A DNA stretch of 58,949 bases, the filler included, from Dugesia japonica (Eukaryota), in the NCBI GenBank assembly GCA_001938525.1. It is 5 parts of 5 records of this genome, joined end to end, with 100 filler letters (N's around TTAATTAATTAA, not from the genome) between each part and the next. Parts side by side here need not be neighbours in the genome. Positions count along the whole stretch, not along the records: positions 39,926 to 58,949 come from MQRL01319692.1; 4 more parts are not named here. The stretch is one strand, 5' to 3'. The notes beneath the pieces are model-generated. The model saw nothing but the letters and a program-made list of their open reading frames with translations, ran no database searches and was not told the DNA's origin. Positions 12,759 to 58,949 of the stretch are shown piece after piece. The position numbers and the translations under genes were made by a program. Within the stretch, counting starts at the first letter, position 1; every line of letters begins with the position of its first letter.

Positions 12759-13200
12759 TTAACATGCATGCGTCATGCTTGTGTCGTGTGCAATAAATGT
12801 TTGCATTAAAAAACATAATAAATAATAAAAAAAAAACAAATGATAATAACAACCTTTATTTAAATAATTACAATAATGTACAATTTTGGTCCTAAAGAGG
12901 ACCGGTTAAACGTTCACAAATGTTTTCTTTTTTTGTAGTCATAATCTAAACAAAAACAATTAAAATAACAATTTAAAACCAAATAAATAACTACCATTGT
13001 TTAAGGTTTTGTTCTTGATCAGGCGGAATCGATTGAACTGTTTTATGGAAAAGTAGACTATATGATATAATAGTGACCATATGGGACACTGCTATTTTTT
13101 ACCTACCCATATGCGCTTATCATTTGTATTTGTTAGCGCTAATTATTTCGACTTAATTTTGCCTCAAAAAATAGATGTCTCAATTTGGAATTGTTGTGAA

Positions 13201-13515
13201 ATTGTACCAGAAGCTATAGTAAACAAAGTATTTGAGTAAATAGAGGAAATGAACTAAGTTAAAATACAATTTGGGATACATTTTGAGTTCAAAAGATTAA
13301 CAACAACTGCTGATGGAGAAGAATTTGAGTATAAAACCTGTAAAATATCAAATAGAGCCGTTGTATTAACTGATAACTTTTTTGAAGATGGGATCAACCA
13401 ATTGAATGAGAAAATAACAATACGAAGCGAACTAGGCTCCAGTTGGATGTTGAACAGAATACTTGAAATTAATTTCAAGATTACAAAGGTTGCAAATATT
13501 TCAAACATTCAAATA
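13201..13515 (+). pseudogene. Fragment resembling the N-terminal region of Polinton protein-primed DNA polymerase B
   Basis: VKIQFGIHFEFKR...NEKITIRSELGSSWMLNRILEINFKITK resembles the GSGWxLxxIxxLxIxIxKY motif upstream of the pPolB exonuclease domain; in-frame stops present. Confidence 0.55.
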
Positions 13516-19249: not shown

Positions 19250-21990
19250 GGTTCAGTGCGGACATGTCTCACTACTTGTATCCAGTATGAATTCTCTTTT
19301 GACATCCGGAAACACTAAAATTGGTGGCTTTGTTAACGCCGTTTTCATATCTCTGAATGATTGTTCGCAGATCTCTGTCCATATTAGCTTCTTATTATTT
19401 ACACTGCAGCGTTTTTCTAGTTCTTTAGCTTTCTTTGTGTAATCCTTTATGAATCTTCTGTAATAGCAACATATCCTCAAGAAATCTCTCTATCTTTTCA
19501 CGCATTTTGGCCTTTTGTATGTTTGTATTGCAACCAATTTTGCTGGATCTGTTTGAATTTCTTTATCACTTATGATGTGTCCCAAAAATTTTATTTCTTA
19601 GCTTAGCAATTGATATTTTGACGCCTCAAACGTAGACCTGCTTGATTTATTTTACTAAATACTTCCTTCAGTGCTTTGCAATGCTTTTCCAAGTTTTCTA
19701 AATATATTAGAATATCATCTAAATACACCGTCGTTCTCTTTGTTGCCTCTAAAACCTTTCTAATGAGTTCCTGAGATTTCCCAGGCACTGCAGCTATGCC
19801 AAACAGCATTTTAATGAAGCAGTATTGACAAGACTTTGTTGAAAAGTCTGTTTTATCTGTTGACTCCTCTTCAAACTCAACTTGATAGTAAGCATTACTT
19901 AAATCTAATGAGCTGTAGAATTTGGACCCGCCTAATCTATTCAGAATCTCTTCTACATTTGGCATTGGAAATGCTTGTCTTTCCGTAACAGCGTTCAGCT
20001 ATCAAAAATCGAGACAGAGACAAATGTCTTTCTTTTCTTTTATCTAGATACATATCAACTGGGTGTTCCATGTTGAATTTCACGTTCATATAATTTTATT
20101 TTCAAAAAGATTATGTGCCCCTTCAATTATGTTATCCTCTAAGTTCATAGGTGTTCTACATTGTTTAACATTTATAGGTCATTCTTTTGTTACTATTTTA
20201 TGCTTCACCAGTTTTGTGAATCATATGTCCTATTTATCTGCCAGTACGATATTTGAATGATTTCTTATCAACTTCTTGATCGCGCCATTTTCCAATGTAT
20301 TTTTTTCACTAAATGCTTTTTGACATCTTTCTTCATCTGCAATATTCCTTCCAAAATATGGCTCGATATTGCAAACCCGATCTTGATTATCTTTTTCTGT
20401 TTTATCTATCCAATGTAAATCTAATCCAAAACTGGTCTGCAACTCAATGCCACCAATTATGCTAGGGATTATCTTTTCCATAACTATAAAACTAATTCAA
20501 CTAGTCGTATTGGCGATACTCACTTCCACCTTAAATTTCCTTTGGTATTTAATGAACTGTCATTAGCACACCGTAGTCTGTCCTTGTTTGTTAATAACGG
20601 GATATCCTTGAATTTGTTAAACACATCTATACCCATCATATTAATTCTTGCTCCGGTATCTAGAAAGCATTCAAACTCCATATTTGGATCTTTATCACAA
20701 TACTTAGTTTACCCTACATTATATCTTATCTAATTACACCTTTCCCTATTCTTCCACTGTTGTGATTGTTGGTTTCACTGATGTTTCTCACTTGATTACT
20801 GATATATTTTTCTTTAAAAAATTATAAACTCGTTTCTTGACATAATCCTCTATATTATTGATATGACTACTTTTACTACTTTTACTTATATTTTGGGGAT
20901 CGCCTATTAGATTTTGAGTTCTAGAGCTCCTACCATCACCCCTGTTGGTAGAGCCTCGTCATTTGGGTTTCTCCTTGATTCATAAACTTTTTGCGTCATA
21001 TCTGTTGTCATCATATCTAACGTCTTCATTTATGTCGTCCTCATATTCCTTGTTACTTGTTTCATTATATTCCACTGCATTCATGTTAATATGTCTACCC
21101 GGAAATGGGAGATTTTTTACCTCATACTTCTTATATTCCGAAGGATACACCTTCCATGTCTTGTACTCCATCTTTGTGAAACAATCTTTGGTTTTATGAC
21201 CGTTCATATTGCATTCTCTGCACTTTATCTTGTTGCACTGTCTTCTTATATGACCTATATTTTAACATGCTTAGCATGTAGGAGGCTTTTTGTCTAGGCA
21301 CTCCCGACCGTTGTGTTCCAATTTGTGACATTTCCAACATTCTACTTTCTCTGTTCTGATTTCCCTTCTGAAATTTGGCTTTTTGTAGGTTGATTCTTGC
21401 ATCCTTGGTACCGTTCTTTTTGGTTCCGTGTATAATGCCTCCTTGCAGCTACACATCATGGTTATTCCTTCTGTCATTTTGGTGATTCTTGAAACATCTC
21501 TGATTATTTTTTTANTTTCTTCTGGTTCAGAAACATCTTTCATAAGAATCTCTTTTTTCGCCTTCTTTTGTGCCGTTGCGTTTATCAGGAGTGCTGATAT
21601 TAACGACTCTTTCGATAGATTATGGCTAAGCAGTTTATCTGCCAGTTTTTTACATCGTGGAAGAATACCTCATTATCAGTATTACCCTGCCTGTCACGAA
21701 TGAATTCTTCTAGATCTTCAAAACTGTCTCTTGGTATTTTCACCAGTATTCTTAGCCTGGTTTCATACCCCTTTACTTTGTTCTCTGATGCTTTATATCT
21801 TTCTTCACGATTCGGGTCAATCATCCTACCGATTACAATCTCTTGTAAATCTTTGGGAATTTTGGCCGCTTTGAAGAATCAACCGACGTCTCTCAAGAAT
21901 CTGTCAAGATTGTCACCTACCATGAAAGGTCTTGGGTGTAACAAATATGTTACTAAGTTTGAGCATGACGTGGTTGCCATATTAGCAAGA
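19250..21990 (-). mobile_element. Ty3/Gypsy LTR retrotransposon, gag-PR-RT-RNase H(start), decayed
   Basis: CCHC knuckles (CWKCHKLEHNGREC; NGHKTKDC), protease FECFLDTGARINM (~20640-20680), RT (LDLSNAYYQV, MLFGI, YLDDILIY) and LTKPPILVFPD..FILDT. PBS-like TGGCAACC at ~21972-21979. Confidence 0.9.
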
Positions 21991-26745: not shown

Positions 26746-28221
26746 TTATTCTGTGGATTCATTGTAATGTATTCCGTACTCAAACAAGTTCTATAAACAA
26801 ATGTGTTATTAATTATAATTTTGAATGTAAATTAAAAATAATGTAGATTAGTTTCTACAAGGAATGAGAAGGTTAAATGGTTGTTATGGACAATTGTAAA
26901 TAAATGTATTATTAAATAGTGAATTCGTTAATAACAATAGATTACCTTCACACAATTCCGCTTAAATAGGTTTTCATCTTCTATCAATCGATGAATAACA
27001 TCTGGAGTGATGCTAATTAAAACAAAAATAAAGATGTATAACCAAGTGAAAGGCTGTTCAAATAGTTCAAACCATGCCCAATAAACATCGTAAGTGTCGA
27101 CTGACCAAATAAAGCCTTGGTACATTAGTAAAAGTAAAAGATTTCCAACTACAGTAACACTAAATCCAAAAAGTGTCGCCCAATTCCAATAGTAGGTCAC
27201 AAGACATAGTTTCAATGAAGTTGTAATCCAAACGATAATTAAAATAATTGTTCCGAAATAATAAAACTGAAGATTTCTTCCGTGATTAGTAACGATATCG
27301 TTTTGATAAATTATCAAAACCGGCCCAAAAATTGCTACTAATGAGTGCCATATGCCGAAGAAATTCCATTTTAAAAAAGATGACCAACTGAGATTTGCGT
27401 TTTGTTTTATTTTTTTGTATAGTTGTGGTTGTTCCATTAATACTTTCGGTGGTATATGCTTCTCCAGCAATCCGTAAATGAAAATCGGTAAAGAAGTCAA
27501 TGTAATGTTGTACAAAACTAGATATAAACTCTCGTACACAGTTTGTGCACTAAATCCAGAGAAAAATGTAAAATAAAATTGAGGACCTATAAAAGCAGTG
27601 TTCTTGTAAAAGAAATACTGGACTAAAGTTGCTATCCTGATGTAATAATAATGTCCGTGTACTAATAAAGCGTTACGCAAAAATTTAAATCTTGGTAACG
27701 CATAATCTCCAGCTCGAACAGCTTGTCGGCCTTCTTTTCCAAATAACCCTATTCCAATATGAGCTTCTAAAATCATGGACACATCGTTAGCCCCATCTCC
27801 GATTGCAGCGGTTACAGGTACAGGAACTTTTGATGATTTAATTAATGAAACCACTTCTGATTTCTGCAAAGGTGTCATTCGACAGCAAAGAACTGCCACA
27901 CACTCAAGGCATAGTAAACGTAATTTATCAATTAGGATTGGCTAAATTATAGTTAAGTAAATTTCTTAACAAATGAAATCTATGTCTCACCCGCAACGCA
28001 ATGCTAAGTGATTGTCCATCAACTATAAGTCCAAACTGTATATTCGGATCTTCTTGTTTATTAATGAGCATTCTTTCCAATTGACTTTCCAAAAAATTCA
28101 TGCAAGAAATAATTTCAGTTTGCTTTGTTACTCTTACCTCTTGTAATTTGGAATGAAAGTGCCCTGTTGAATGACTGATATTGACTGCAGTTTCTTCTTT
28201 ATCACCAGTCAAGATCCAGAC
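26746..28221 (-). CDS. ATP11: Phospholipid-transporting P4-ATPase (ATP11-like), 3' exons: 27991-28221, 26946-27941, candidate last exon 26746-26790
   Basis: VWILTGDKEETAVNI, LIVDGQSL, AVLCCRMTPLQKSEVV, AIGDGANDVSMI, GKEGRQA and YFFYKN, plus six C-terminal TM segments. A 49-nt GT-AG intron (27942-27990) restores the frame. The 5' part lies beyond the scaffold break. ATP11 subfamily is judged from motif recall. Confidence 0.92.
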
Positions 28222-39825: not shown

Positions 39826-39925
39826 NNNNNNNNNNNNNNNNNNNNNNNNNNNNNNNNNNNNNNNNNNNNTTAATTAATTAANNNNNNNNNNNNNNNNNNN
39901 NNNNNNNNNNNNNNNNNNNNNNNNN
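39826..39925. other. Artificial scaffold-joining spacer
   Basis: 44 N + TTAATTAATTAA + 44 N. Confidence 0.95.
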
Positions 39926-40016
39926 GACCTTGACCTACATTGGTTGCCATGGCAACGGGGGGACCCCCCGTCGACCTACTTTGTTCTGGTGTCCTCCTAC
40001 CTATCTACTCTCTACA
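39926..40016 (-). mobile_element. GC-rich element terminus (Polinton-like TIR end, or start of a 3' LTR)
   Basis: Minus strand reads TGT-AGAGAGTAGATAGGTAGG... It contains a GGGGGGACCCCCC hairpin, the perfect palindrome GTTGCCATGGCAAC (RFX X-box consensus) and AGGTCAAGGTC. Confidence 0.5.
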
Positions 40017-40199
40017 ATTATTGTTTTAATTTGATTTTCTTTATTTCGCCGAATGAATTGATCACTTGATTATTGCTTGTCATTTTTTTTGTCTTCTCTG
40101 TCTTTTCTTTTCTTTCTTTTGTTAAGTTATAACTTTTTATTTCAAGGTTTCCTTAGTCATGGTACATATTTTAGTTTCCTTACCTTGTTTTTTCTTCAC

Positions 40200-41700
40200 T
40201 CATTTTTGCACTTCTGGTACTTCTCCACTTTTGTTGACTGTGGTTATCCCTCCTGCTGTAGGTAGTTCGTACTGTTGTGCAAAGCTGTCATACGGTTCGA
40301 AATAACAATCTCCTTCGTATGCACTTTTGGTACTGACTACACAATATAATTGGCATCTACTAGGCACCAAAATCTCTTCTGTAGTGAATACTTCATGATC
40401 TTTCACATGGGTAAAACCTTCCAGTGATTGTAACCGTAATGTTGAGAAGTTCAATATGCCATTTTTCATCAGGACTGGAAAGATGTCCGTTCCCAAAATA
40501 CACTGTTCTGCCATCTCTACTATGATCATACTGTGTTTAATTTTGTTATCTTGATATTCTACTTCACAGGCTAATTCCCCAAAAATTTTAAGACTACTTC
40601 CATTTGCCACATCCACCGTAGTGTTAGTGGGTAATATGTTTTTGTATTCTGTTATTGCGATTTCTTCTATGGATAACAACGATATTGTTGCTCCTGTGTC
40701 TAATAAAGCTGTTGTGGGTCTACCATTGATTTTAACCCTAATGGTTAATACAGGTCCGCCGTCGAAGCTTGCACATACTACCTCCGAAAGATCACGATTA
40801 GGATTAATTGGTTTTTGGATTTTCCAACTTGGTTCTCGTTCTTGGAATCTTATCCAGTCATCCCTTATCATGGGGGTTGTATTGGTAATTTTCCGACGAT
40901 CTTGATTTAGGTTAGTTTGTTCACCTCTATTAGATGAGAGTTGCTGCTGCTGGTTGGGTGTTGGTTGATTCCATTGCCGTGGTCGTTTTTTTTTAGTTAT
41001 CATTCGAGTTTTCTGATACCCTACTGGTGCATATTCCTGATTGTAGTTTTCCCGTATCATCAGTTTCCTTAAATCTAATATTCCTTCCGGGCATAGGCGT
41101 GGTAAGAGGTCCAGTCCCAATAAGCAGTCGAAAGTTAATTCATTCATTATTTGTAATTTATGCCAAAAACGGATTCCGTCACTTTCTATTGCACATATTG
41201 CTTCTCCAACGGGTGAGATTTTTTCTCCCTTAGTAATTGTTATTCGGAGTAGTCGATAATCTTCTAATATTCTCTTGTGGACTAACTTCGTACTTGCTCC
41301 GTTATCGATAATGGCTATCACCCATCTTCCGTCTATTTTTATCCTTTTTTGTAAAAATTTAGCTCTCTGAGAAATCATCATACACACGGTTTGGGTTTCT
41401 AACTTATCATCTTCAGTGATTTGGTTATTCGGAGAACGCAAGTTTTGGTTGGTCACTCTTCGGTCAATAGTCGATACATTGCTCTCTGTTAATAATGCCA
41501 TATTAGGATCTTGTGGTGGGCTTATATACGGGTTGTTGTACATAGGACCTGGTGCCCATACCTACTGTGGTGGTTGGTTCATGGGTTGCCAACCCTGCTG
41601 TGGATAGGCGTTATAGTACATTTGTGTTGGTGCTGTTGTATTTTCGCTTCCTCCGAATTTTAACGCGTTTCTCAGCCGTTGCATTTTGCTGATTTTTTCG
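40200..41700 (-). pseudogene. Tandem retropepsin-type aspartic protease domains plus post-protease beta-rich region
   Basis: ORF 40200-41543: domain 1 IAIIDNGASTKLV...CLLGLDLL, domain 2 TALLDTGATISLL...CILGTDIF, then ILVPSRCQ...YFEP as seen after PR in some Gypsy pol proteins. Confidence 0.88.
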
Positions 41701-41899
41701 TATTGTTGTCTTTTGAACTCTGCATCTTATTCCATAGCGGTTTTATAACTGAGTACATGGGGTGTTTCACTGCTTTCTCCTTTATCGTCATCGCTGCTGC
41801 TACTACCTTCATCTTTGTTCTTAAATCTTTCTTTAAATGGGCTGAAATATGATATTTTCTTTTTCGCATTGCTCATTTCTTCACAAAATAACCATATTC

Positions 41900-43890
41900 C
41901 ATTATAACTTCCTTGTCTGATCCTCTTATTTGCCCGAGTTTCCTAATGAATCGCTTTACCCTGTCAATGTCTTTGGAGTGACTATTAAGTACCATGGTTT
42001 TGGCTAAGAATGGAAATATTCCGGTTACCATCTTCCAATTTACCTTCTTTTCCCTTTTTTATATGTCAAAGCAGGCAAACAACTGAGTAATCACCACTCG
42101 AGTTACCGAAATTATTAACATAACCCCCAACAATCCTGCCATTGCCTGTCCAAATATGATGAATCGTCCCCACATTTTCCAAATGACGTTTTCTGTGGCT
42201 TTTTGAAAGTAATCTGCTGATAATAATGCGTCGTAATTTACTCGTCCGTCTATGTTAGTTCCACTGGTTAATTGCACTATATTTGATAGAATTTGCATCC
42301 TTCGGACTGGAAACAGCATATATTCCCTAGCTTTCTCTCCATCCTCCCTGCTATAGATTCCTCCTTTATTTATATCAATTGGGGTGAACTGCATACCTCC
42401 ATTTAATCGTAACATTGAGAATTTTCGTGGTTCTACTCCCACTGCCATTCGTTGCGGAAACCTTATCCATGAACTGTCCGTCATTATGTATTGTGGTTCA
42501 AATACATTAGAGCAATTTATTATATTTGGCCTATACCCCAACGGTGATATTATTAGAGTAATTGGTTGCACATATCGTTTCTCGTTGTTATGGATGATTT
42601 CTATCTCATTATAGCAATACTTTGGGTTAGTCGAAAATTTCGCATCTACGGCTTTGCATTTGTATAAGTACATTACTTTTCCTACTACTCGACCAAATTG
42701 CCCCTTTTCTAGAAAGAGCAATGGGGTGACACTATCTGGATTCGTAACTGCCATTGCTAGTTTTGTCTTTGGAATTTCTTTATTCAATGTGCAGTCATTT
42801 TGAATAAGATCGTGGTACATTCGTCCAATGGTATCTTGTATTTAATGGAATAAATTGCCCATTTTTTATTGGCATATAGATGCAATTTGATTTCTTGTGA
42901 CATTACTGCAGCTTGTGCAGTTTTTATTCGATGTTCCGATACGAATATTCCTTTATAATTTGTCTTATATACTATCTGTACACATTTTGACATAGAGTTC
43001 CCTTTAATTAAACAGATGGTATTCTCCTGTTCCGAGGACATTAACACCGTAGGAGTTCTGTGCCATTGTTGATCGTATGATCTCGGACCTAATCTTATCG
43101 TTTCCTTGAGATTATCTATCCTGTCCTTTAGATTACTCTCTTTTGGGGCTTGATCGATAGGTGCTATAGCTCGTTGTCCTTGATATTCATTGAACATTAC
43201 CTCCTTTAAGTGAGCCAACTTGCAGTCCTGATGGTCTACTTTATATGTCAGCGTTGATGTGCCTGTATTGCATGACCCGTCTGCTGCTTTACTATACGAT
43301 CTTCCTTTCATAGTCAAATCTTGAGCGCCGAAAAATGCTTCGTATTCCTTGAGTTCTACTGTATAAGTTTCAATAGCCACTGCATACTGCCATACTTTCC
43401 CTCGTATAGTGTATGTACCATATTCACAGTTACCTTTATGTGAAGATATGCTTCCTGCTGCTTCTATCGGTTGATCAATTACATGCCCTTTCTTAGCGAT
43501 AACTTGAGTCCCATGTTTGATGGCAATTTTACCTGTTGTAAATCATTCATCGCATTGTTGCCCTGTTAGATGTACGGGATGTCTCAGTGTTCCTGGATCA
43601 ATTATCGAGGTATAACTGTGATAACCACAATGAAATATAAATGTCTTTACTGTTATTGTACATTAGCGTACTTGGGCCTTATAATAATCGGACTCCTGGT
43701 ACAAGTGGTAAATAGAATTATTACGGAGTGAGATGTTTTCCGGGTTTGCGTCTGGACATTCCTCTGTATCCACCAATGAAAATACTTCCTTCCCAACTTG
43801 CATCCCATCGCAGTCGTATGCTAATATGGCTTCACTTCTGCCAATCATTAGGAATAGCAAGAGTATTGTAGTGGTTAACGCTTGCAATGA
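41900..43890 (-). pseudogene. Envelope glycoprotein, chuvirus (Jingchuvirales)-like / class III fusogen-like
   Basis: Signal peptide, then ILAYDC...SLVDTEEC, CTITVKTFIFHCGYHS, GNCEYGTY, GKVMYLYKC..V...CYNEI.I...YVQPIT, GGIYS and a TM segment (FIIFGQAMAGLLGVMLII). Cysteine and motif spacing follows chuviral G as I recall it. Confidence 0.8.
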
Positions 43891-46800
43891 GTTTCGGCCA
43901 GGCCCACATGTCCATCCATTCTCAATCTCATTTAACTGATCCCGAACAATCTTGATTACTCTAGTTGCATTTTCATGAGAGGGCTGAGGCTTCGGACATA
44001 TGGCCTAAATAAACTTTTTCCATCTTTCATGCTGTTTTATCAACGGCACTATCTTGTTCTGCATGAGCTCCACTATTGATAGTTTGCTGAGGATGAAGTT
44101 TTTTGACGGCTTACTCCTAGCAATTGAGAAGTGTGTTTGGTTTATCAAATGGGCTATGGATACTACTATCCTTCCCTTCGATGGCTGATCTTGTAATAAC
44201 TCATCCATCACTCCTTTTAAATTGTCTCTTGTGCCATGACTAGTACCTTTAGTGGCGGGAAATTTCTTAATGGCTGTTTCTATTTCTTTTGCCAATGGTC
44301 TGAGACTATCGGATAGTTGAAATTTCCCAATCCATATCTTTAATTCTGGATAAAGCATTAGCAATAGTTTCCGTATTACTACTTCAGTTGACATGTCATC
44401 ATCCGATGAACTCTCGTGGTATCTTTCTTGCGATATCGTTGCTAAACGCTTAGTTTGGTGAGTTATTGATGTTGTTAATCGTTTTTGTTTCAATGCTTCC
44501 TCCTCTCCCGGATTTCCTGGGGGTTTCGTTCTTGGTCTGCCTCTGTTACGAAGTTCAGTAATAGTTTCAGCATCTCCTCGGGTGCGCACTGGTTTTGGTG
44601 GCGCCGCTTCCTCCTCTGTTTCTATTGGATTTTCCATTTCTGTGGGGTGGTTGGTATCCATTAAATCATTCATTACTGAGGATGGCAATTATTTTGCTAT
44701 TCTACTCAATATTGGTGATAATGTTTGTTCTTCTAATATATCTTCCTCGTCTAAGTCTACCTTACTAGGATAATATTTCTTGCTTTGATTGGGCTCTTTG
44801 GCTTTCATTTTCTCCTTTTTTCTAGTTGGAGGGGAGTATTTTGTGATTTGTAACTCATTCCCGTCTTCTGTTGATTCGTCTGCCGATGGTGATCCGAATA
44901 TTTCACGTTCCCAATCTTGGCTGGTTTCTGTATTTGTAGAAATGTATTTTCACCTGTTTTATGTCCATCAAATGTTATTTCTCTTCAAACTTTATGGGGA
45001 ATCTCAGATGATCGCTTGTGATTATTTAACTTTTCTGCTGGTCGGCTATATCTAATGTTTCTATAATTTCGTCCAATTCCCCAGCTGATGTATTGTTGAA
45101 ATGTGGTATATGTATGACAGCCAATTTTGGTTCCTTCCTGGGTTTTTTATTTGGTGTCAAATATTCTATCGTGACCTGAAAATCCTCACCCTTGGCACTT
45201 GTCTTCACCGTACCAATTTACGGCTTGATTACTAATTCCCATTTGGCACGTTCTTCCTTTGCTATTTCAATATACTTTGCCAGATCCATTAGTAAATTTA
45301 ATGCCTTCCAAAACGCTGCCTTAGGTATCCTTTCCTGGAAATAACAGAAATCCGAAATTATCTTCGATATCCGCTCGGTCTGAGGGGAACTGAAAGGGCT
45401 CCACAAATTCTTGTTTAAATGGTAACAATCGGGGTTGGATGATGTCCTCCACAGTTTCTTCCTCCTTCTCATCTTCATCTGCCGCTAGGTCTGTGGTTTC
45501 ATGGTTATTATCCCGAACATGTTGATTTAGGCTTTGTTTTCTCCATATGTATTTATGAGACGTTCATTCTCTATTGGTAAAATTTCTTGTATATATCGGC
45601 TCATCATATTGAATGAGAGTTGATCGGTGTCCGGCATTTTTGGTATCGGAATGTCTATGGTCATTTTCGGCGGCGTTAGCTTGACCTCCGTGATCTCTCT
45701 TGGTTTAATATCATGCAGAAAGATATGATCCTCCTTTTTTGCTAGTATGATCATGGTTGCTCCTGCTTGTATTTTATATGATTTGATTGATTTTGGCCAT
45801 AACCATTTCTTGATCGGTTTTATTATATGGCGGATAGTTAATCCCTCCAGAGTTATCATATCTACCCTTTTTATACTTCCCTCTTTACTGAGGAGGATGA
45901 CTCTTATAGAATAGTCTGATATGGTGGATGTATTTTGTACTTCCTCTTCATATAAGGTTTTCTCTTTCCACCATTGTGCTCAAACCCACAAGCTGAGTTG
46001 TCCATAGATTGCCAAATTCTGTAAGTTATTCATCATTTTCCAATATACTTTGATATTCACTACTGGTCTAGTTTCCCGTGTTACTCTTAGTAGATCGTTG
46101 ATAGCGTGAAACGTGGCGGATTCCTCCGTTATTGGTTTCGTATAGTTCATCCGAATATCACGTATTGTTGGTGTCCCTTCCTGAAATACATCTGATTTTG
46201 TGGTAATTATTGGCAAGTTATCAATATTCTGTATTTTCTGATTTTCTTTTACTTGTTCCTTTTTACCTGCCAATACTTCGGATACGTATAATTCTGTTAT
46301 CTCTTCTATTCTCTCCTCAAGATCTGGCGATTGGTCTGTCCGTGGCTCCTCTTCTAATTCACATATTTCTCCGGGCTTTGCATGGCATTGGAATATGTGT
46401 TTGTACTCGTCGTCGGTCTCAACCAATTTGCAATTTATGAACAGAGGTACCATGTTTAGTCCTTGTTCTTGCCACATATCGGTAATGGCATCCATTAAAT
46501 CCATCATGGTTATTCCTCGTGGTTTTAATCGGCTGTATTTAGTCAGTTCTTGGTCATTTTTACCTATATTCAAATATAATTTATAGTCCTGAATTTTGGT
46601 AGTCGCCAATATTTCTTCGGCAAACTTCTGTCTAATCATGAGCCATTATTCCTCAATTTCCTTCGGTATTTCTAGCCCATCATATATGTCGTAAATTCTA
46701 TTCATTATCATCCAATATGTTTCTCGGGGTAGCTTTTCTTTTTCTGTCTGTACTCGGTTGACCATTTTCTCCACTTTACGCATCGCTACTACCTCTCTTG

Positions 46801-48220
46801 CTGGCATTTGCCGCATCCTTATCATGTTGCATTTACATTCTCTTCTCTCCAAACGTTGTTTGAGAAAATCGTTTCGCGTCATCAATAAATGTTTCCTTTC
46901 TTCCTTTGTCAGTTTGTCTTTCTTCCCTAATACTGTAGAAAAAATCTTTATTTTAATAGGTTCCACCTCTTGTTTATATAGATATTCCATTTCCCCCATG
47001 ATTTCTAGTGCCGATCTTCCAGTTTTTGTTATCCATATGTCATATTCGATGCCAGGGTGTTTGTCCAATATTACAATTACAATTTCTTCTCCTGGTTTTA
47101 CCCCAAAATCGTATAGATGTCTTTTTCTGGCATTGAAATCCACTATAGCACTTGCAGTACATAGGTATTTATCGGTTATGCATGGATAGCCTACTTGATT
47201 AAGCACCGCTTCTAGATCTTCTACCATTAATCATGTGAGTGTCAATTTCATATTTCCTTCTGGGTTATATAACCATACTTGGTAGTCTCATAATCCCCTG
47301 TTGGATATTACCAAATCATAATGCACTGGTAACCATTCTGTCCAATTGCTTTCACAATCAGTGATCAGTTGTATAACTTCCAATAATTCAACCAATCGAT
47401 TGGTCAACTTTAGGTATACATCCTTCTTTATTGTATCATGGAGTTTCTGGGCGGTTACCAGTATCTCATCAATTCGGGCTAAGGATAGTCGTGATGCTTC
47501 ATTTTGTTCCAATTCCGGATAGTTTCACTTTCTGTAATCTTTTCCGTAAGTAATTTTGAGCCTGGAGAGGAACTATTTCCTTTAAGAATGTTTCTTCGAG
47601 ATTATGATATAACTCGTCCGTTTCTGTTTCTTGAATTAATGTTTGTGGTTGGAATACCAAATCCCAATTTATCAATTTAATTATTGTAGTTTCCTGAGGT
47701 TGTGCCCCGTAATAAATTAGGTTCCTATCGTCGGGAAGAATGTTGATTCCTATATTACTTATTTGCAATCTGTGCCTATTCCACTTTCCATTCCATTGTT
47801 GCTGGGCGTTAAACGGTGGTAATTCGAGAAACGGGTTTATAGTCATATCCTTGATGCCATTTACTTCACTCCATTTTATCTCGTTAATTTCCTCTTTCAA
47901 GTGCCGTATCGTCATTCCTTTTAGCGGTAGCTTTAGTCGTTTCGGAATAACCTCGAGATTGTTATGCCATACATATTGAACTTCAAATTCGTAATCTTCC
48001 AACTTAGTTTCTTTATAAAGCTCGGTGATATAATCCGATATTGTTTTCTGCCAGTTAGCTTTTACTTTTGCGGGTACCTGTGGGTGCTGGTATAATCGAA
48101 GTAACTGATTCATCACCCGCCTTCTTCCAGTGGTTGTGTGGATGTTTCTATTGTCTTATAGATGATTTCATTGGTCCACTAGAATTCTGGTGATGTAATC
48201 AGTATTCGCTTTCGAGTATC
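43891..48220 (-). pseudogene. Inter-gag/env polyprotein region with repeated ubiquitin-like modules, acidic linkers and an AT-hook-like RGRPR
   Basis: ORF pieces 47499-48116, 47288-47512, 46646-47227, 45980-46639, 45527-45859, 45218-45478, 45026-45208 and 44005-44688; most adjacent pieces share a frame across single stops. Confidence 0.6.
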
Positions 48221-49471
48221 TTACATTTTGGTAACTTCTGTTGTTTCGTCATGTTGGTTATAAATTTGTCTATGTGTTCTAACCATATTACATTGATTCT
48301 TGTGTGGTTCGTTTAACAAGTTTCTTTTTGCCAGTCTCTCTTGCTGTACTTGCAAGTCTTGGTTTTGCCACTTGAGCCAATCATTTTCTTGTTGCACTTT
48401 GTGGTACACATTGTCAAAAGTACTTTGATGCACTAAATTGACTTGTCTCTTGTTTTGATTTACTCGTTGTCTTAATCTCTCATTTTCCTGCATTAGAGTA
48501 TCCAAATTTGTATTCGGATTCCGATTATAATTTTTTTGGTTTCCGTTCTGACATTCTTTTGCCATATAGCCTCTTCTGTTACACTTGTAACAGACCGTTG
48601 GATTTTTCAAAAAACAAGTTTCTATGTTGTAGTTGGTTCTCTTGCAATAAGTACAAAATCGGTTGTTGTTATTATTACTGCCTCTACTTCTACAACCTCG
48701 CGCAATATGCCCCTTTCTTCCACGGGAATTGCATTGTATATCTCGATTATTTTGCCAGTTATTCCGAGGTACATTAAATCCTCCACAATTTCCTCGGGGA
48801 TAGTTAGGTCTATCATTCCGGTTATTCCGTTCTTGGCCTGGGGTCAGGATTTTCATCATTGATTGCGTATTGGATATGAAATCTGATATCCGTGGTGTAG
48901 TTTCCTCTGTCTGTCCGTCTAATTTGAATATTCGTTCTGATAGTCTATCTGCTAAAATTCGCAATGTGGCCAGAGCGTCCTGTAGAGTCACTGGCTTATT
49001 CAATTTTACCATTAGTTTGGCGTTCTCGTCGCGTAATCCATTTAAAAAAATGGTGAGTACTTGACTGTATTCCAGCTTGTCTCCTAAGGCTAATTTGCCA
49101 CGCCTTTTGAGTTCCATCATATACGCTTGTGGAGTTTCTCGTCTTTGTTATTTTCGATTGGTAAATTGTTCGAAATCCTGGCCAGTCAATTTTAAATTTT
49201 GAAAATTATCGGTTAGTATTTTCACTCCCTCTTCCCATTTGTCGAGAATGGCTTCCATGCCCTTAGTGTGATCCCAGAACACCGTTTTGGCTACTCCTGT
49301 TAAGTAAGCTGGTAATCGCTTCCTTTTGGCTTCCTCGTCCCAACCACAGGTTTTGGCATACATTTCGTAATTTTGAATAAATTCATCCAGCTTTTCAGGT
49401 ATTCCGCTGAAATATTCACCATCAAATTTTATTTTCCACTCCGGTCGATGGTTTTCAGTTTTGGTTGTCAT
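48221..49471 (-). pseudogene. gag: Gag (capsid-like region plus three CCHC-type knuckles)
   Basis: FSG..EKLDEFIQNYE...WDE..K...LPAYLTGVAK.., RK*QRRETPQAYMMEL and FLNGLRD. Knuckles CNSRGRKGHIARGC, CTYCKRTNYNIETC and CYKCNRRGYMAKEC. The two ORFs are in the same frame across one TAA. Confidence 0.88.
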
Positions 49472-50319
49472 GTTGTTGTCCTTTGCTGTGTTGGTTTCTA
49501 TTTTCGGGTTTTTAGTTATAACTGGGGTGGTTTTGTTTATTTGGTTATCGTTTATTAAAGTTAAAATTTCGGTGCTTCCTTGGTTACTACCTATTATCTC
49601 TGTCTCTTCTGAGATATAACTTAGTTCGCTTAATCGGTTTTTATCCGTAGGTGGATTACTATGGGTTCGCTTCTGGATTATTCTATTTTCTTTGTCACTT
49701 GGGCTACTGTTTGAACTGATGGTAGCAATTCTTCTTTATTCTTTTCCCAGTTTTTTACTCGGCAGTAGCCAAGTTTATATTTCGAATTTTTTATTTTGAC
49801 TTTTTTATGAAATTTGGCGGTTGCCAAGAAATTTACATTTAAATTTTTTCAATTCTTATTTGTAATTTTTTAATATTAATTGTCTATTATTTTTAATTGA
49901 TTTCTTATTTTCTATACTAATATTTTTAATATAGAATACACACAATTATATACATGTATGTATGTATATACACACCCTTTCCTTTTTAAAATAAAAAAAT
50001 AAAACAATTACATTATAATTGTGTTGTAATACCCGAATATATAATTGTGTAAAAAAGGTGTATCAATTTATTAAGTATAATTTTATTACGTTTAAATCAC
50101 TTATCCAGTAAAATAAATCTAGTTTGAAATATTTAATCATTTTTTAATTCATCTATTTTAGGATAATACTCAGTCATATAGTTTCTTGGTTATATTTCTT
50201 CTGTTCTTTAGTAGCAATTTGATTTATCTGAATTGAAATATTAAAGTAATATCAAAGCAATATTCAAATCTTACTGCATTATGGATTACTGCAACTATTT
50301 TCATGATACTAAGATTGTT

Positions 50320-51500
50320 TACATTAGTATAGCTCTGTCCGATGAAATTTGAATTTCATTTTTTAATACTATAAATTATTACATATATGCAGGCATTTCC
50401 AAACTTGATATCTAATCTCACATTTCTTTGTTGGGGCAATTGACTCTGATTAATATGGATATCCGGAGCAAGTGCAAAGGTAAATAATGGATATTCATTT
50501 GTAAACTCCTCAAGTGTTATTCTACATTTCATATTCTTGTTTAGATATCTCATATTTCTAACTATTGCTTGAATGTATGATGTGTTATAATTATCATTTT
50601 CAAAGTCTAGAGTATATAATTCTCGATAATCACTGTTTTTAGATAGAGTTATAGATTTGACATTGAAATAATCGAAATTTAAGCTTGATGTTTTAAAGTG
50701 ACCATTATATCTATCTCTATTTTGAAATGTTACCAACAAAAAGTTACTAGCGATCTCCAAAGATTTGCTCCTTATAAAACGTTGAACCACCTTTGCTGAT
50801 TGCATAAGCCACAATTTTCTAGGTTTGTATTGGATGACCTGTTAGTACTGATGATTCAAGTTGAACTCTTCTAACCATTAATTTTGTATCAAGCAATAAA
50901 AATTTTGTTTCTTCAGTTGACGTTTTTGAACCCATTATATTGGCTGCTAATTTCATTCGAATGTGTATATTGACACCACGAATAAGATATTTTGGTGGAT
51001 CCATGAAATCTAGCTGCAAAGAACCACATAATGACAACGACGTTGATAATTTAATCGACTTTTGTCTGTCTTCTTTATCCTCATTACCGATTGCTGCAAG
51101 ACAAATGTTCTTACTATCTCCATTATAATTCAAAACAGTTTCAATCATAGCCTTCTGAATATGAATTTTGTTGCCACCTTCAATTTTGATATTGTTGAAT
51201 GAAAGAATAACATCTTTAAACATAGTATGAAACAAAACGTTGCTTGTTACTACATCAGACTTTTCACCCAATTCTTTTCCAAATTTTTCGACAACTTTTA
51301 CTTGTAAATACAATAAAGTATCATTCAAATCTAGATAATTAGTTTGAGATGCATATATAAAAAACTCTACATCATTTCTCATTTTGGAAATTGAATTCAT
51401 TGGAAACACATTTTCAAATGATCCATATTCAATAACACCTTGTGGAGATGGACGATCAAAAATGCATAGTTCAGATTTTCCACAAATTATTTTTCAAATA
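50320..51500 (-). pseudogene. Polinton major capsid protein (double jelly-roll), internally deleted/frameshifted
   Basis: KSELCIFDRPSPQ..IEYG, VEFFI..SQTNYLDLNDTLLY.QVKV, HTMFKDV, YLIRGVNIHIRM and C-terminal ITLEEF..YPLFTFALAPD...NVRLDIKF...IIYS, typical of Polinton MCP. Confidence 0.88.
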
Positions 51501-51599
51501 TAGTTCTATAGCCCTATTTCCGTTTGATTATACATAATATGATTGATTTCTTGAGTTTAATTACAGTGCTTTCATGATTTGTATAATTTTATGGTATTA

Positions 51600-51954
51600 A
51601 TTTGGAAAATTCGCTAGAATCTATAAAATTGTTGAATTCAGACATTGCATTTGCTTTCAATTGAGGCAAAAGTTTTCATTTATTTGAAATCACACCCTGA
51701 CCTGTTTTTATATCAATAGCTCCAATACGTCTAAAAGTAGACAAAGCTAATCAACCAATTGTTTGCAACCATCCGGAGCCATACTGTTTTCCTACAAAGT
51801 ATGGTAATTGTCCCCCAGCTTCACTAGTACTATACAATGAGATATTATCAGGATTAGACATTTTTTCGAAAAAAATTGTTAAATGAGTTTTTGAGTCTTT
51901 AGTAAAATTGATTAAATTTCCGTTATCAACTATAACTTTAGTAAATTTCGCCAT
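51600..51954 (-). pseudogene. Polinton putative virion core protein
   Basis: GGQLPYFVGKQYGSGWLQTIG resembles the F.G...Q.G.G motif of small Polinton/adintovirus core proteins found between ATPase and MCP. Confidence 0.6.
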
Positions 51955-51979
51955 TTATAAATGAAATAAGAAATTAAGT

Positions 51980-52495
51980 TTATTGTTTATATACGGTAAC
52001 ACCGTTTGGATCGAAAATATCAGTTCTCACTATAGGTTCATCTGAAAATTGTTGTTTAAAGTCTATAAAAATATATCCATGAAGATTTACTGTTGCATCT
52101 TTGAATGAATCCAAAGGAAATTGCGTATTTTTTGGAAATGCTTGTCTTGCAAGAAAAGCAACAGCTGTTTGATCTCTTGACTTTTTAAATATAACCAAGT
52201 ATTGTACATTTAAATTCCGAGTTCTATGTCCACCTCCTTGATGGAATATATTCCAAGTAATAAATATTACAGTCACATTACAATGTCTTGATATCTTCGT
52301 GAATAAATTTTTTAAGTGATTTTCCTTGTTTGCTTCCTTGTATAAATCATCAACAACAATCACATTACCTTTAGTTATTCTCTTGCTCAAATTCTCATCG
52401 AAACCGTTTATAATTTTCATTATTGTATCACAGAATTCAGAATGAGTTATTCCACGTTCTTCATCAGCTTCTCAATGCATATATTATGTTAAACT
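51980..52495 (-). pseudogene. Polinton FtsK/A32-like DNA packaging ATPase (Walker A half lost)
   Basis: VIVVDDL (Walker B), NLFTKISRHCNVTVIFIT.NIFHQG...RT.NLN.QYLVIFK..RD, HGYIFID and VRTDIF. Confidence 0.92.
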
Positions 52496-52497
52496 TC

Positions 52498-52665
52498 GTT
52501 ATCGATTTGGAATATTTAATAAATTTATATGAATTAACAAGAAGAACTAAATGCATGTATGAACCTGAATTATTTCCTGCGTTACGACTTATATAATTCA
52601 ATCCATTCTGTGTAAACGTATTTTTATCTGGAAAAATAGTCTTTTATAGGAATCAAAACATTAGA
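52498..52665 (+). pseudogene. TATA-binding protein (TBP)-like core repeat fragment
   Basis: VIDLEYLINLYELTRRTKCMYEPELFPALRLI*FNPFCVNVFLSGKIV, then a frameshift into IGIK. This aligns with TBP repeat 2 (DVKFPIRLEGL...SYEPELFPGLIYRM..P..VLLIFVSGKVVLTGAK). Confidence 0.75.
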
Positions 52666-55600
52666 TTATCAACCTCAAGTCGATGTTGTGATATCTGATT
52701 TGAATAATTTCATTATGAAAACTAAATCAATGCAGAAAACAAAATCAATACTTGAACAAAGCATGCACATTGATGCATGAAGCATGCACATTGCAAAACG
52801 TAAACAAAAGAAGATGACCAATATAAGTTAAAATGATAGAAATGTCTAAAGAAATGTTCATAAATCAAATGGTTAAATATGAGTTACACTATTGAATGCA
52901 AAAATATGGATACAGGTTTTAATGATGATGATGAATTTTCAGAACATGATGAATGCAGTAAATATACAATACCTAAAGAAAATAAATATCATGTTCATGA
53001 ATTTGATAGAGTAAAAGGTTAGTTTATTTTATAACTTTAATTAATTAACTAATTTGTTTCGAGTAATTGTTAAAGATATTTTGGAAGAACAATTTTATAA
53101 TTTAAGAAATGATTTATTGGTATCATATCAAAATGTATACCAGAGTTGACATAGAAAAAAACCATTAGAAAATACTTTTATACTTCCCATATTCGTGCAC
53201 ATGTTGTCAACTAACGAAACTTAGAAGGATTGTAATCAAATTTATTAAATAAATCTTGGTTAATGAATCTTGTTTTCATTGTGTTTGTACTATTAATTGT
53301 TTTATGTACAATAATAAGACAACAGTAATAAAACACATTAGTAATAACTAAACGACATATTCAAATTAAAATATTTATTAATATAACACTTCTATTCTAT
53401 CTTTTTAATACTTTGTACTTTCCATATTGGAGCCACATTGTTTTCCAATGTCTTATATCCTAGTATTTGACTGTAATAATTGATTTACTCGAATTTTCGT
53501 AGGGGATCTCTTCCTTCAAGCTGATGAATGATATATTTAATCTTTCTATAAATTAATTAATTCAGGAAAACCACATTTGATCTCACAAGATGATGATATA
53601 TATTATCTATATATATCTTCTGTAAGAGTAATGAATTTCAATTTTAAACAATTTTAAACAAACTACATATTTATATAGTATTAAGTGTGTGTGCGTGTGT
53701 TAGACAACTGTATGTGTGTTTCAAATTAAATCAGTAAAACAAACGATTTATTAATTTAATTTTTATCAAATTTCATTTATATTAAATTTATATTTTATAG
53801 TTAATATTGTCCGGGGAACATTAATAATAATATTGCGCGGGAAAATTTAATGTAAATATTGTCGGGGAGAAAATCAGATTCGATAAATTTTGTTTAATTT
53901 AAACAAACATAAGCTTTTCAATTAATTTCCAAGAAGAAACTCAAAAATTATTAATTTCATTAAAATTAAACAACTAACCATTTATCTCGACTCATTTAAA
54001 CAAAGAATAATTAAACCACTTGATTTAAACAAAAATAAATAATTTCACCTCATTTAAACAAAAAACACATCAATTAAAAAAAAATTTCAAAAATTTTTAT
54101 GTAATCATTGCATAAAAATGACATCGTCATTACGCAATCACGACGTCGTTAATATACCGATTAAATTTCGATCAATCAAATTACAGTATTACTGCCACAA
54201 TTACGTTATCATCCAAAAAAAAGTCTGATCAATTAAATCGTTGGAAATCAAATTTCTACCGCAAAAATGATAGAGGGCAGCGGTACTGCAGCAGTATGGC
54301 AGTAGTTTGGACCTATCTATTTACTACGATAATCCGTCTTTAGAAAATGATCTTGATGTTATTTGTTCAGATGTATTATTTTTCATTTAAATAAATGACA
54401 GACTGACAACATTAAAATATAAATTTATTTTGATTTACAGAAAGACTTAGCCAAATATATCTTCCTCAGAGATCGTGATTGTTAGTGGTACGATTGGCTT
54501 TTTCTGTGTATTGGTCAACACCGAGGATTCTGGATCGGCAAGTTCAAGAACAGTGATAATTCGCGATGACGACTGTCGTTTCCACAATCTCTAAGAACTT
54601 AATTTGTTTTCATAAACAAATTGTTTCACGCCAACATATTTATAATTTTTACGATAATTATTTGATTTTGGTTTATATTGATTATTTGACGATTCCGAAT
54701 CTTCCAATATTGAAATAAATAAACTTGGCTACTGCCGAGTAAAAAACTGGGAAAAGAATAAAGAAGAATTGCTACTAAAATTTAAAATCAGAAAAGAAAG
54801 AAATATGGCAACGGCCAATTGGAGAATAGAAGTGTTAAATAAAATCAAATATTATATAATATCAAATCAGCAGAGAAATATAGTCATCGAAAATATCTAA
54901 TTGTTTTGGAATTTAGTATTATCAAATCTATCCAAAAACCATCCATTTTAAACAACTCAACCAAATCCACTAGACAGTTCTTAATCAAAAAATTAGTAAA
55001 TTTCTTTTAGTTCAATATTTTAATAAATTTGTTAAAAGTTCTGTTAACTTAATTTTTGCATTTTTATTAGAGGTACTTTAAACTTATTATATAATATTTT
55101 AATCTTTACACACAGCATACATCCCGGTTGTCCCAACATAGAGACAGGAGGCGCTTCCTGCCTCAACAAATGTCTCTACAAACAAAATTTAACCAAAAGA
55201 AGAAAGGTTTAAAGAAAACTAACTTATATTAACCTAATAACAATAAACAACACAAACTTATAACGATAGATAAAGATAATATCAAAAATTAAGATCATGA
55301 TAATATCATGATTCAATATTGCGCCTATATTTGGATTGGGTGATAGAAATAAAATAAATGTACTACTAATTAAAGCATACATCGGAAAGCCGGACGAGTT
55401 TGACGAATATTTTTAAATATTAATTTAAACTAAGCATATAATTGGACGAATAATTGATTGATAAAAAGACTACCATCATATTTGAATGTTTTTGCACTAC
55501 AAAGTTACAAGAATATAAAAAAGTCCCTTGCAATATTTGAGGATTTGAAATCAGAACTTAGAGAACTTATAATAATTTCGTCAGAAAGAATATGTATAAT

Positions 55601-56127
55601 AATATAATTAATAAAGTACATAATTAGAAAGAATATGTATACAAAAGTTTGGGAACTGAATGCAAAGAACGTAAGAATCAATGAAAATATCTCTATAAAT
55701 GGTAAAGCTGACATTTTCAATATTCTAATTCTCCTATTCATTGTATTTACAAACATTAATAATGTTTTTCCAATGCTTCCTTTTTACATCTATGAAGATT
55801 AGATTACCACAAACAAAATGTTTGATAATTTCAAGTAAATCATCAATCAACACAATAGAAATGAATGCATAATTTTCGATGATTTAATCAAAGCGGTAAA
55901 GAGCGGAACACTTCTTTTCAATTTCATGTTTTTTATATTTTAATAACACATGTATGCATACATACCAGTCCATTGTTTATAATGATATCCATTTTCCATT
56001 GATTTCTTTTTCCATTTCCACTGTCCACTCTATTTTGCAAGTTTTTTATCTTTCTTATTTACATGTCGTTTCTTATGCGATGTCTTTCTCTTTTCAATAA
56101 ACATAATTGAAAGTTGTTCTGGTTTAT

Positions 56128-56805
56128 AATTGTGACAGAGATAAGAAATGAATAAAATATAATAATCCAAAATCAGAAATTTCATGGGTAAAGCCAAGAG
56201 AACCATCAAAATCGCTCACAAATTCATATCATTTCGGAAACTGATGATGCTCGGCTTCTGATGAGATATTAAGGGAATGCTATTTTCCAAGATAATGGAA
56301 CCCAATTAAACAGTTTTTTCTAAACGCAACTAACACTATTAAATCCGATTAAGTCAATATTTAGAACTCAAACGCCCATATAGTAAAAAAGAAAATCTAC
56401 TTTATAATGTTACTTGAAAAGATGTTTGCTTGACAATTCTAAGACACATATTGCTTCAAAAACAAAGGACACCGTAATAAAACTTGGCTAGGAAAATTTA
56501 GAAGGCAAAGAATATTTAACGGACATTATTTCAACTGATTATTATTTGTTCCTAACGATACAGTACGCCTTTTGCGATACAGACTTTGAATCAATGGATA
56601 TCATCCGAAAATGGATTGACAGATTAATCAAGTCTAAATAATCAGAATTGTTTTTAGAAGGAATTCATCAGCTACCAGTAAGATCGCTTAAAGATATCAA
56701 TAACAATAACGGTGTTTTTTTCTGATTGAATAATTTGTGACAAATGCCTTTGTTATAAAATTTGAAATTAGCTGAAAAACTTGAATTATTTATTTGTAGA
56801 CCAAA
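56128..56805 (+). mobile_element. mariner transposase 3' remnant with TIR
   Basis: IVT.D.K*IKYNNP, WVKPREPS, ML.F**DIKG and YS.DY.C..D..LF-like segments; terminal TTATTTGTAGACCAAAT resembles a mariner TIR. Confidence 0.75.
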
Positions 56806-57002
56806 TTTTTAAAAGAAAGCGCTAAATAAAATATCAGATTCTAAGAATTTGAAATATTTATTAAAAATTAAATACTAAATAATTAATTACTAATTTTAAA
56901 TAATTTTTCACCAATACAAATTCAAAGATATTAAAAATATTTGAAAACATTCTTTATTAATACGAGTTAATTATGATAATATTAAATAACTAAAAATTCA
57001 AT

Positions 57003-57293
57003 ATGAATACTGATCAGGTCAAATGTAAAATTCATTTGGAAAATACAAATGAGTATCATCTCAATCCATCAATATTGAATTATAAAATGGAAAGAAAGTT
57101 TTCAATGAAACGACGCTATTCTACATTATTTGAAACTGGTAAATGTAATAATAAAGAATCAAATTTTGAAAGATTAGATTTGAGAAAGTTTCCTGTTAAA
57201 CGCAGGTATTCTAAATTATTTGAACCAGAGAAATTTATGGAAAAAATATTACCTATTTCTCAATTAGAATTAGCAATTAAAATCACAAAATAA
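57003..57293 (+). CDS. Small intact ORF (96 aa) with internal duplication, next to Polinton integrase
   Basis: ATG-to-stop ORF containing RKFSMKRRYSTLFE and RKFPVKRRYSKLFE. Confidence 0.4.
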   Translation: MNTDQVKCKIHLENTNEYHLNPSILNYKMERKFSMKRRYSTLFETGKCNNKESNFERLDLRKFPVKRRYSKLFEPEKFMEKILPISQLELAIKITK

Positions 57294-57419
57294 ATCCAAA
57301 TACTGTAAAGAAAGTGAAATATTTATACATATATAAACCTTTATCATTATTAAATTGTTGTATTTTATTATAATTTACTTAAATCTTTAATTTGTTGGTG
57401 TTCTATATTATTTATGTTA

Positions 57420-57715
57420 TCTTAAAATAAGCCAATACAGCCACAGTATAAAGCTGCATACGTAGAGAGATTAAATCGTATATCAAGAGATGCACTGGAA
57501 AAGTACTTTGTATATTTTAGTAATAAAACTTGGATAAATGTTTAACTGAAACATATTCATAGTTACAATCATTCGAGTCACAAATTTTTAAATAGAGCAA
57601 TACTATTTGATAACAATCACTTAAAATCGTGGTTATCAAGAACACATTCAAAAGCAAATAAAAAACCAAATTTTAAAGTTGGTGAATATGTGAGAATATG
57701 GAAAATATCAGCTTT
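57420..57715 (+). pseudogene. Polinton integrase, C-terminal half
   Basis: KAAYVERLNR...KYF...NKTWINV...SYNHSSH...KPNFKVGEYVRI. Confidence 0.85.
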
Positions 57716-57739
57716 ACCATTTATCAGTAGTTTTTAATT

Positions 57740-58125
57740 AGACTAGTTTTCAATATTCCATCTTCAAACATTAACTTGATTGCAGCTTCCATTTCAATTG
57801 CAGATTTTGACTTGACTGGAAGAGCTCTCGCAAATCTGCTAAACACGTCGATACATGTTAAAATGTACTTGTAACCTTTATTAATATTTGAAAAAGGTAT
57901 CATTTATATCAAATTAATTTGTCATAAATCGTCATCACCAATTTTTTTATTCAACCTTGTTGGAAATTTTTTCAGCATTTGTTTGTTTAGACTATACGCT
58001 AGTTGACCTGATAGCCCCGTTTGCGTATTGTCTTTCAAATTTTGTCTTGCTTTCCATATATTTTCGACTCCTTTGAATCCTGCTGAAATTTTTGGATCTG
58101 TCCATATCACCTTGGTTTTATTCAT
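57740..58125 (-). pseudogene. Polinton integrase, N-terminal half
   Basis: WTDPK.SAGFKG...QLAYSLNK...KFPTR...DDL*QINLI..NKGYKYILTCIDVFSRFARALPVKSK, the typical Polinton integrase N-terminus. Confidence 0.88.
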
Positions 58126-58949
58126 TACAATAATTTGGTGCAAATCTTAGATTAATTGAAGGTAATGATTCTAAATTTTCCATTGAGTATATCAAATTTG
58201 ATATATATTGTTGAAATTGATATGCAAAATTTGTCACATGATTTATAAAATTAATAATCGAAACGTCCTAATGAAGCACAGAATAATAATTGTGGAATTG
58301 ATGATGGGCTTTTATACTAACTACATTAGTTATAACTGTTTCTTCTTTGATTCTTGCTCATTTAATCCATAACATTGATGTCTAAAATGTACTTGTTTAT
58401 GAAAATGTGAGCAATTAACATTCGCACATTATTGACATTTTATTTCTATACAAGCCTAAAAATAATTTGAGTAGAAAGAAATTTTTTTATGATTTTATGT
58501 TTGTTTTAGGTTTAAATTAAATTAAATGTCGTGTGAAAACATTTCATTTATTTCATGATTCAATTTGTTCTAAATATTATTTATAAATTTTCAACAGGAA
58601 ATGAAACTCAACTAAATTAANTTAATAATTAATTTAATTCAATATTATTGGTTTAAAATTAAAATTATTTAATAATTAATTTCTATTTCAAATATTGAAA
58701 ATAATAAAATTAAAAAATCATGGCATATATAACAAATAATGAAAATAATATTCAACTAAAAATTTAATGTTGTGAAATGATGAATGCAACGCAATTGGAT
58801 ATGAATATTAAATATTAAAAAATATTAAAAGTATATAACAATGAAAAGCATAATAAATATGATTGTAAACAAAATAATTATTATTATCATAATAATTATT
58901 ATTATTATCTTTGAAATTATTTAAAAATCAAATCTAACATTCTATACAA

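Follow-up and report, generated by a model that had tools for sequence, protein, structure and literature searches.

Organization of the element

The element described here lies on record MQRL01319692.1 of Dugesia japonica, which supplies positions 39,926-58,949 of the window (the whole stretch of 58,949 nt that was analysed); the element and the repeat array that it carries both fall within this part. The window is AT-rich, with about 19-35% GC, and contains an island of 36-40% GC at about 40-50 kb. Read on the minus strand, the island encodes a gag-like region, an insert of ~3.2 kb, a linker, an env gene in three pieces and two protease-like segments, spanning ~9.3 kb from the start of gag to the end of the protease ORF. 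The copy is decayed, with 20 stops per about 3175 codons and several frame changes.

The gag-like region (48126-49471, minus strand) is a by-eye reading and comprises a capsid-like part, three degenerate zinc-knuckle-like motifs and a coiled-coil-like tail, interrupted by stops. It gave no Pfam match and 0/1685 homologs among proteins of 449-2000 aa. Beyond the insert, sequence reading places an acidic/basic linker and an unassigned stretch, with an LYPEL motif at 44352 (44005-44926, minus strand), upstream of the env signal. The env gene itself (42062-44004, minus strand) encodes a gB/chuvirus-type envelope glycoprotein in three pieces (PF24664, E 1.3e-6, 1.6e-10 and 2.1e-45), with a signal-like hydrophobic stretch from 43878 and, by hydropathy, a membrane anchor near 42169-42060. 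Its last piece is 55% identical to a relative, P0003, across 45% of the query, and this was the sole relative among 837 candidates. In P0003 the end of env, the protease and a reverse transcriptase (RT) share one ORF; the RT is presumably Ty3/gypsy-like, judged from its motifs. The protease region (40203-41561, minus strand) has two aspartyl-protease-like segments, at 41058-41396 (D-N-G) and 40479-40757 (D-T-G), recognized by Pfam gag-asp_proteas (E 3.4e-12) and by tblastn with P0003. They stand in tandem, whereas P0003 has one protease. The PF24664 pieces are thus flanked by the gag-like region on one side and the protease on the other, as in GAG-ENV-POL elements with a gB-type env, and these three features bear out the location in a retroelement polyprotein proposed in an earlier, sequence-only reading of this DNA.

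The copy stops short of an RT, and an N gap adjoins it at 39925. RT, RNase H and integrase are absent from the copy, and a search for an LTR pair, bounded by the same gap, found none. The element copy may be internally deleted and non-autonomous. At its margins we note a purine-rich tract followed by TG-starting sequence that runs into the gap (39925-40203, minus strand), one contig from sequencing run X4 that joins 40045 to 49821, and a 64-nt piece of the element 5´ region (49722-49783) that recurs inverted at 54712-54775 with 97% identity.

The array is a regular component of a high-copy family. Contigs from three sequencing runs were placed on the element at 80% likeness, which yields summed depth and not a copy count. 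In run X1 (23,511 pieces) the contigs span the whole element, with depths of 9,600-46,000 over the array, 10,000-56,000 over env and 28,000-49,000 over gag, against 22 beyond 49889. One diverged contig of 3116 nt is collinear across the array, at ~80% identity in the pieces shown. Of 1,895 differences from other copies, the 40 with the best support include 4 located at stop codons of the analysed copy; as stops make up 20 of ~3175 codons, these particular ones look copy-specific. Indels among the differences listed adjoin several of the frame changes, and together with the copy-specific stops they make it likely that working copies encode a continuous polyprotein. An RNA run, X11, sampled to about 25%, gave 107 matching reads, 105 of them under 90% alike, and was uninformative on the analysed copy.

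An array of five repeats with a predicted bundle-plus-beta architecture

The insert between gag and env is an array of five units on the minus strand, each 145-154 aa long and 12-24% identical to one another in pairwise comparison. Unit 1 (47664-48125; profile score 46 bits) consists of helices 2-3 and a beta part, M1 (47664-48005), interrupted by ~26 aa of inserted sequence; there are frame changes on either side of the unit. Its first helix was sought in the upstream frames without a significant result, the best candidates being reached in score by 438-475 of 2000 shuffles. Unit 2 (47057-47491; 32 bits) has a helical part and the beta part M2 (47057-47296), with two in-frame stops. In unit 3 (46340-46795), examined by AlphaFold2 and fold searches, a predicted three-helix bundle (residues 2-65) that holds the single in-frame stop is followed by the predicted ubiquitin-topology domain M3 (46340-46597). 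Unit 4 (45668-46123; 52 bits) combines a helical part, which contains its one in-frame stop, with the beta part M4 (45668-45925). Unit 5 (44927-45388) has three in-frame stops, a significant helical part (27 bits) and a beta part that is degenerate or incomplete. The anchor asparagines of successive units are 709, 699, 672 and 732 nt apart, and the linkers between units vary in length.

Evidence for the repeat comes from the protein level; there is no DNA-level repeat among the units. BLASTP of the frames against one another gave off-diagonal matches with E values from 4e-4 to 7e-9. In leave-one-out profile tests, whole units scored 32-52 bits; the shuffles peaked at 8-11 bits, and none of 2000 reached the score of any of the five. 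Taken alone, the helical parts beat all 2000 shuffles in 5/5 cases and the beta parts in 4/5 (M1-M4, with M2 and M3 ahead by under 1.1 bit); the beta part of unit 5 (M5) was not significant, since 129/2000 shuffles matched its score. These tests are somewhat favoured because the module limits were set after viewing the alignment. A weak tail segment past the last strand, whose score was reached by 1, 5, 72 and 0 of 2000 shuffles in units 1-4, is weakly common to units 1, 2 and 4 and doubtful for unit 3. A six-frame scan of the window found the pattern N-x18-W-x18-D[YF] five times, with one gap-free occurrence in each unit; as the pattern was derived from these units, it describes their regularity and carries no independent significance. 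A profile search for a sixth unit found none.

The sequence-only reading had described four to six ubiquitin-like modules of ~90 aa. The five motif sets that it quoted are all in place in the minus-strand translation, and its expectation of internal repeats was borne out by the self-alignment. The number, however, is five units with four complete beta parts, and the extent given missed the helical half of each ~150 aa unit, which opens with ~65 helical residues. What it took for the last strand in module 4 aligns with strands 3-4, the last strand lying ~20 residues further on.

The fold was predicted for unit 3 by AlphaFold2, from an alignment of four rows, all from one copy, in which units 4, 1 and 2 served as companions. 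The model has a pLDDT of 81.9 and a pTM of 0.75, with 4/5 models at a pLDDT of 76 or more. It places helices at residues 2-65 and then, at 72-149, elements in the strand order of ubiquitin: strands at 72-79 and 82-89, a helix at 97-111, strands at 118-120 and 123-125, a helix at 134-137 and a strand at 144-149. Foldseek against the PDB gave a best E value of 0.0066 (probability 0.98), and 37/45 of the matches listed carry ubiquitin, SUMO, UBL or Atg8-family names; in the viral library ubiquitin-named entries were abundant (best E 0.023). No match in either collection reached an E value of 0.001 or better. A wide structural search of 48,161 chains was headed by a trypanosome ubiquitin-like protein (Z 8.1, rmsd 2.2 Å, 74 residues), and among its best 50 entries 21 aligned on the helical part and 29 on the beta part; 22 of the latter bear titles from the ubiquitin family. 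Model residues 71-152 align with ubiquitin 1-72, and structure matches to the beta domain have Z 7.0-8.1 and rmsd 2.2-2.9 Å over 68-77 residues, at 6-20% sequence identity. The search tool rates a Z of 7-8 as common, and the PDB contains ubiquitin many times over; yet the middling values go with coverage of the whole domain and agreement on one fold. The bundle resembles unrelated generic bundles only (Z up to 7.9, e.g. the CNOT3/Not5 N-terminus), and no chain among the matches listed convincingly covers both bundle and beta domain.

The beta part of unit 3 thus very probably adopts the ubiquitin fold, as judged from the predicted model, and units 1, 2 and 4 are assigned the same fold through their homology to unit 3, with slightly lower confidence. 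The tandem beta-grasp domains of the sequence-only reading hold up as a prediction in this form: the fold searches favour a ubiquitin-like domain in unit 3, whereas Pfam gave no ubiquitin-clan match for any of the five modules. Other sequence searches were similarly blank. Units 2-4 gave no matches by phmmer against 1.84 billion representative proteins and nothing in a phmmer search of PDB sequences, and unit 1 gave 0/610 candidates among proteins of 383-2000 aa, which is weak evidence. The unit profile met the last-strand motif of 2daf_A, which we take to be a ubiquitin-like domain, only weakly (E 0.65 and 0.86). No array-related loci were found in viral contigs or in 229 metagenome contigs. 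Three loci returned by a motif scan were all unrelated by tblastx; API5, suggested for unit 1 by the PDB sequence search (E 0.005), was judged a chance match; and phage ring/adaptor clusters returned for M1 by the ESM Atlas (0.93 and 0.89) had low shared-feature counts. 

Relation to known elements and domains

The closest published parallel is Burro, a group of giant Ty3/gypsy elements of planarians with an ORF of 4,873-5,140 aa, in which the slot between gag and env holds MATH, BIR, ankyrin and BCL2 domains and one Ubi2/SUMO-like motif (PF11976; PMC6431247). As described there, Burro also resembles our element in having two or three CCHC knuckles, accessory domains and an in-frame env with mononegavirus fusion protein matches, followed by the protease. 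It differs in its giant ORF, against ~9.3 kb from gag to protease here, and in carrying one SUMO-like motif instead of five bundle-plus-ubiquitin-fold repeats (PMC6431247, same text). Pfam scans of the element ORFs detected no MATH, BIR, ankyrin or BCL2 domain.

The gag-env-pol order with a gB-type env has been published for nematodes, bryozoans and flatworms, and the GAG-ENV-POL errantiviruses with HSV/gB-type env of that study share gene order and env type with our element (PMC13524379, in the portion available). The analysed copy differs from them by the lack of RT, RNase H and integrase and by its doubled protease-like segment. The word ‘ubiquitin’ has no occurrence in the main text of that article as accessed, nor in PMC6338049 and PMC12440569. 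In its supplement 1, as far as available, rows 119, 126, 1452 and 1453 are gag-env-pol elements 2-3.5 kb longer than their table neighbours, and these four are candidates for a similar insert. The longer gag-env-pol entries there, Smed_5, Smed_6, Bsto_2 and Cpal_7, measure 16.9-18.0 kb, as compared with about 14.5-14.9 kb in most of the bryozoan and Schmidtea entries.

Among proteins with ubiquitin-like domains, the type II group (Ddi1/Ddi2, Rad23, Dsk2, TBCE, UBX), tandem ISG15, FAT10 and OASL share the predicted beta-grasp fold, and all appear among the structure matches. Sequence identity is 6-20%, and no family stands out; the array domains differ from them in that each is preceded by a three-helix bundle. 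In the literature searched, as far as its text was available, we met no description of a tandem array of this bundle-plus-ubiquitin kind, although one in Sacco et al. 2022 or Repbase is possible. Within these sources, elements of this type are already published, as is one ubiquitin-like motif in the slot; what appears new, with no relative or mention found, is the bundle-plus-ubiquitin unit and its fivefold array.

How gag-env-pol retrotransposons of invertebrates with an envelope assemble, bud and are handled by host defences is a largely untested field. To it the array adds a domain unit without detected relatives, in the slot that carries ubiquitin- and apoptosis-related cargo in Burro. The beta parts M1, M3 and M4 are free of stops in this copy, so isolated domains could go straight into structure determination and screens for partners.

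Possible roles of the array

Several surface features bear on function. The dipeptide GG is absent from the 218 + 875 codons of the two unit-bearing frames, and the residues past the equivalent of ubiquitin residue 72 are not LRGG-like; conjugation and cleavage by deubiquitinases therefore both fit the array poorly. This agrees with the earlier judgement that the modules are probably not conjugatable and contradicts the suggestion, made alongside it, that they mark sites of deubiquitinase processing. The column equivalent to Ile44 holds F, Q, Q and T in units 3, 4, 1 and 2, and that equivalent to Val70 holds E/K/K/I-V; both were mapped by eye in a shallow alignment, on ubiquitin numbering. Most units seem to present a polar Ile44-type face, as far as the aligned residues indicate. 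Of the invariant residues (N32, W51, D70, Y71, P141 and E143), some sit in the bundle and others at the beginning of strand 1 or directly ahead of strand 5; none is on the Ile44 face. No hydrophobic segment occurs in the array, which lies upstream of the Env signal-like stretch and would therefore be cytosolic.

From these features we infer, tentatively and at somewhat less than even odds, that the array is a non-conjugatable, multivalent accessory module for docking proteins, with diverged binding faces. In working copies it would be translated within a single Gag-Env-Pol polyprotein and would remain in the cytosol, ahead of the Env signal stretch. The protease of the element may then free the array or leave it attached to Gag. 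Its partners could be proteins of the host or the element, contacted by surfaces distinct from the ubiquitin Ile44 patch, and each unit might have a partner of its own, as with the host-modulating cargo of Burro elements in the same slot. This cargo, between gag and env, is the precedent for the slot.

Our second choice is mimicry of polyubiquitin at the Gag C-terminus, by which the array would draw in ESCRT, or another reader of ubiquitin, to bud enveloped particles, or act as a decoy. Retroviral late domains lie downstream of the zinc knuckles, and the array is likewise placed past its knuckles, in an element that encodes an env and has a YPxL motif downstream of the array. Ubiquitin lacking GG can moreover substitute for a late domain when placed on Gag, more copies being better (PMC2958808, in the text available). 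In the same text, ESCRT-dependent budding by Gag-fused ubiquitin required the L8/I44 patch, whereas the Ile44- and Val70-equivalent columns here are, on the by-eye mapping, mostly polar, and identity to ubiquitin is low. The YPxL motifs number two, LYPEL at 44352 before env and YPEL at 47521 before unit 2 (frame uncertain), which is about what chance would give in three minus frames of 9.9 kb. We consider mimicry unlikely, and recruitment of ESCRT or the proteasome by this route, as first envisaged for the modules, is weakened by the composition of the Ile44-equivalent column. About as unlikely is a structural role, in which the array would form a rigid spacer or matrix-like layer from the capsid to the Env leader and membrane, the ubiquitin fold being merely a stable block. 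The fixed, indel-free N-x18-W-x18-D spacing in 5/5 units and a location after Gag and before the Env signal in a gag-env-pol polyprotein would suit it, but the units are only 12-24% identical and their linkers differ in length; most gag-env-pol elements listed are, in addition, ~3 kb shorter than the longest, so that many may do without such an insert (PMC13524379, available part; known by length alone).

The ubiquitin fold within a polyprotein also recalls pestiviruses, where ubiquitin inserts mark polyprotein cleavage. That the modules are cut sites for host deubiquitinases is nevertheless very improbable, given the missing GG and LRGG-like residues and a protease encoded by the element itself. 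More serious, though still rather improbable, is the objection that the ubiquitin assignment reflects modelling bias from a shallow alignment, or that the array is neutral captured cargo. Such an objection can point to the blank sequence-level searches, the lack of homologs for a deeper alignment and a single-sequence model of M1 with a pLDDT of 34.6, whose fold search was uninformative. It is opposed by the confident unit 3 model with its full-domain overlap on ubiquitin, by the alignable motifs kept at 12-24% identity and by the diverged 3116-nt contig that keeps the region collinear. A broader extension of the ubiquitin-fold assignment would be that an envelope-bearing retrotransposon lineage evolved the bundle plus ubiquitin-fold repeat and amplified it fivefold within Gag-Env-Pol; the resulting genetically encoded platform, similar to poly-ubiquitin, would engage the ubiquitin/SUMO machinery of the host, or jam it, while particles bud or defences are evaded. 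We hold this to be doubtful, if a little less so than simple mimicry.

Other sequences of possible mobile origin occur in the window. ORF remnants at 50359-52471 and 57922-58146 (minus strand), one of them with a weak match to the Pox_A32 packaging ATPase (E 0.006), are possibly a decayed Polinton/Maverick-like element. In other parts of the window there is a separate reverse transcriptase fragment at 19624-20292 (minus strand; RVT_1 E 4e-16, 31% identity to P0003), and long inverted arms with tandem arrays of 17-18, 29 and 31 nt at 10378-14368 resemble foldback-type elements. At 26931-27941 (minus strand; PF16212, E 7e-67) lies part of a phospholipid-translocating P-type ATPase, as a long exon or a remnant.
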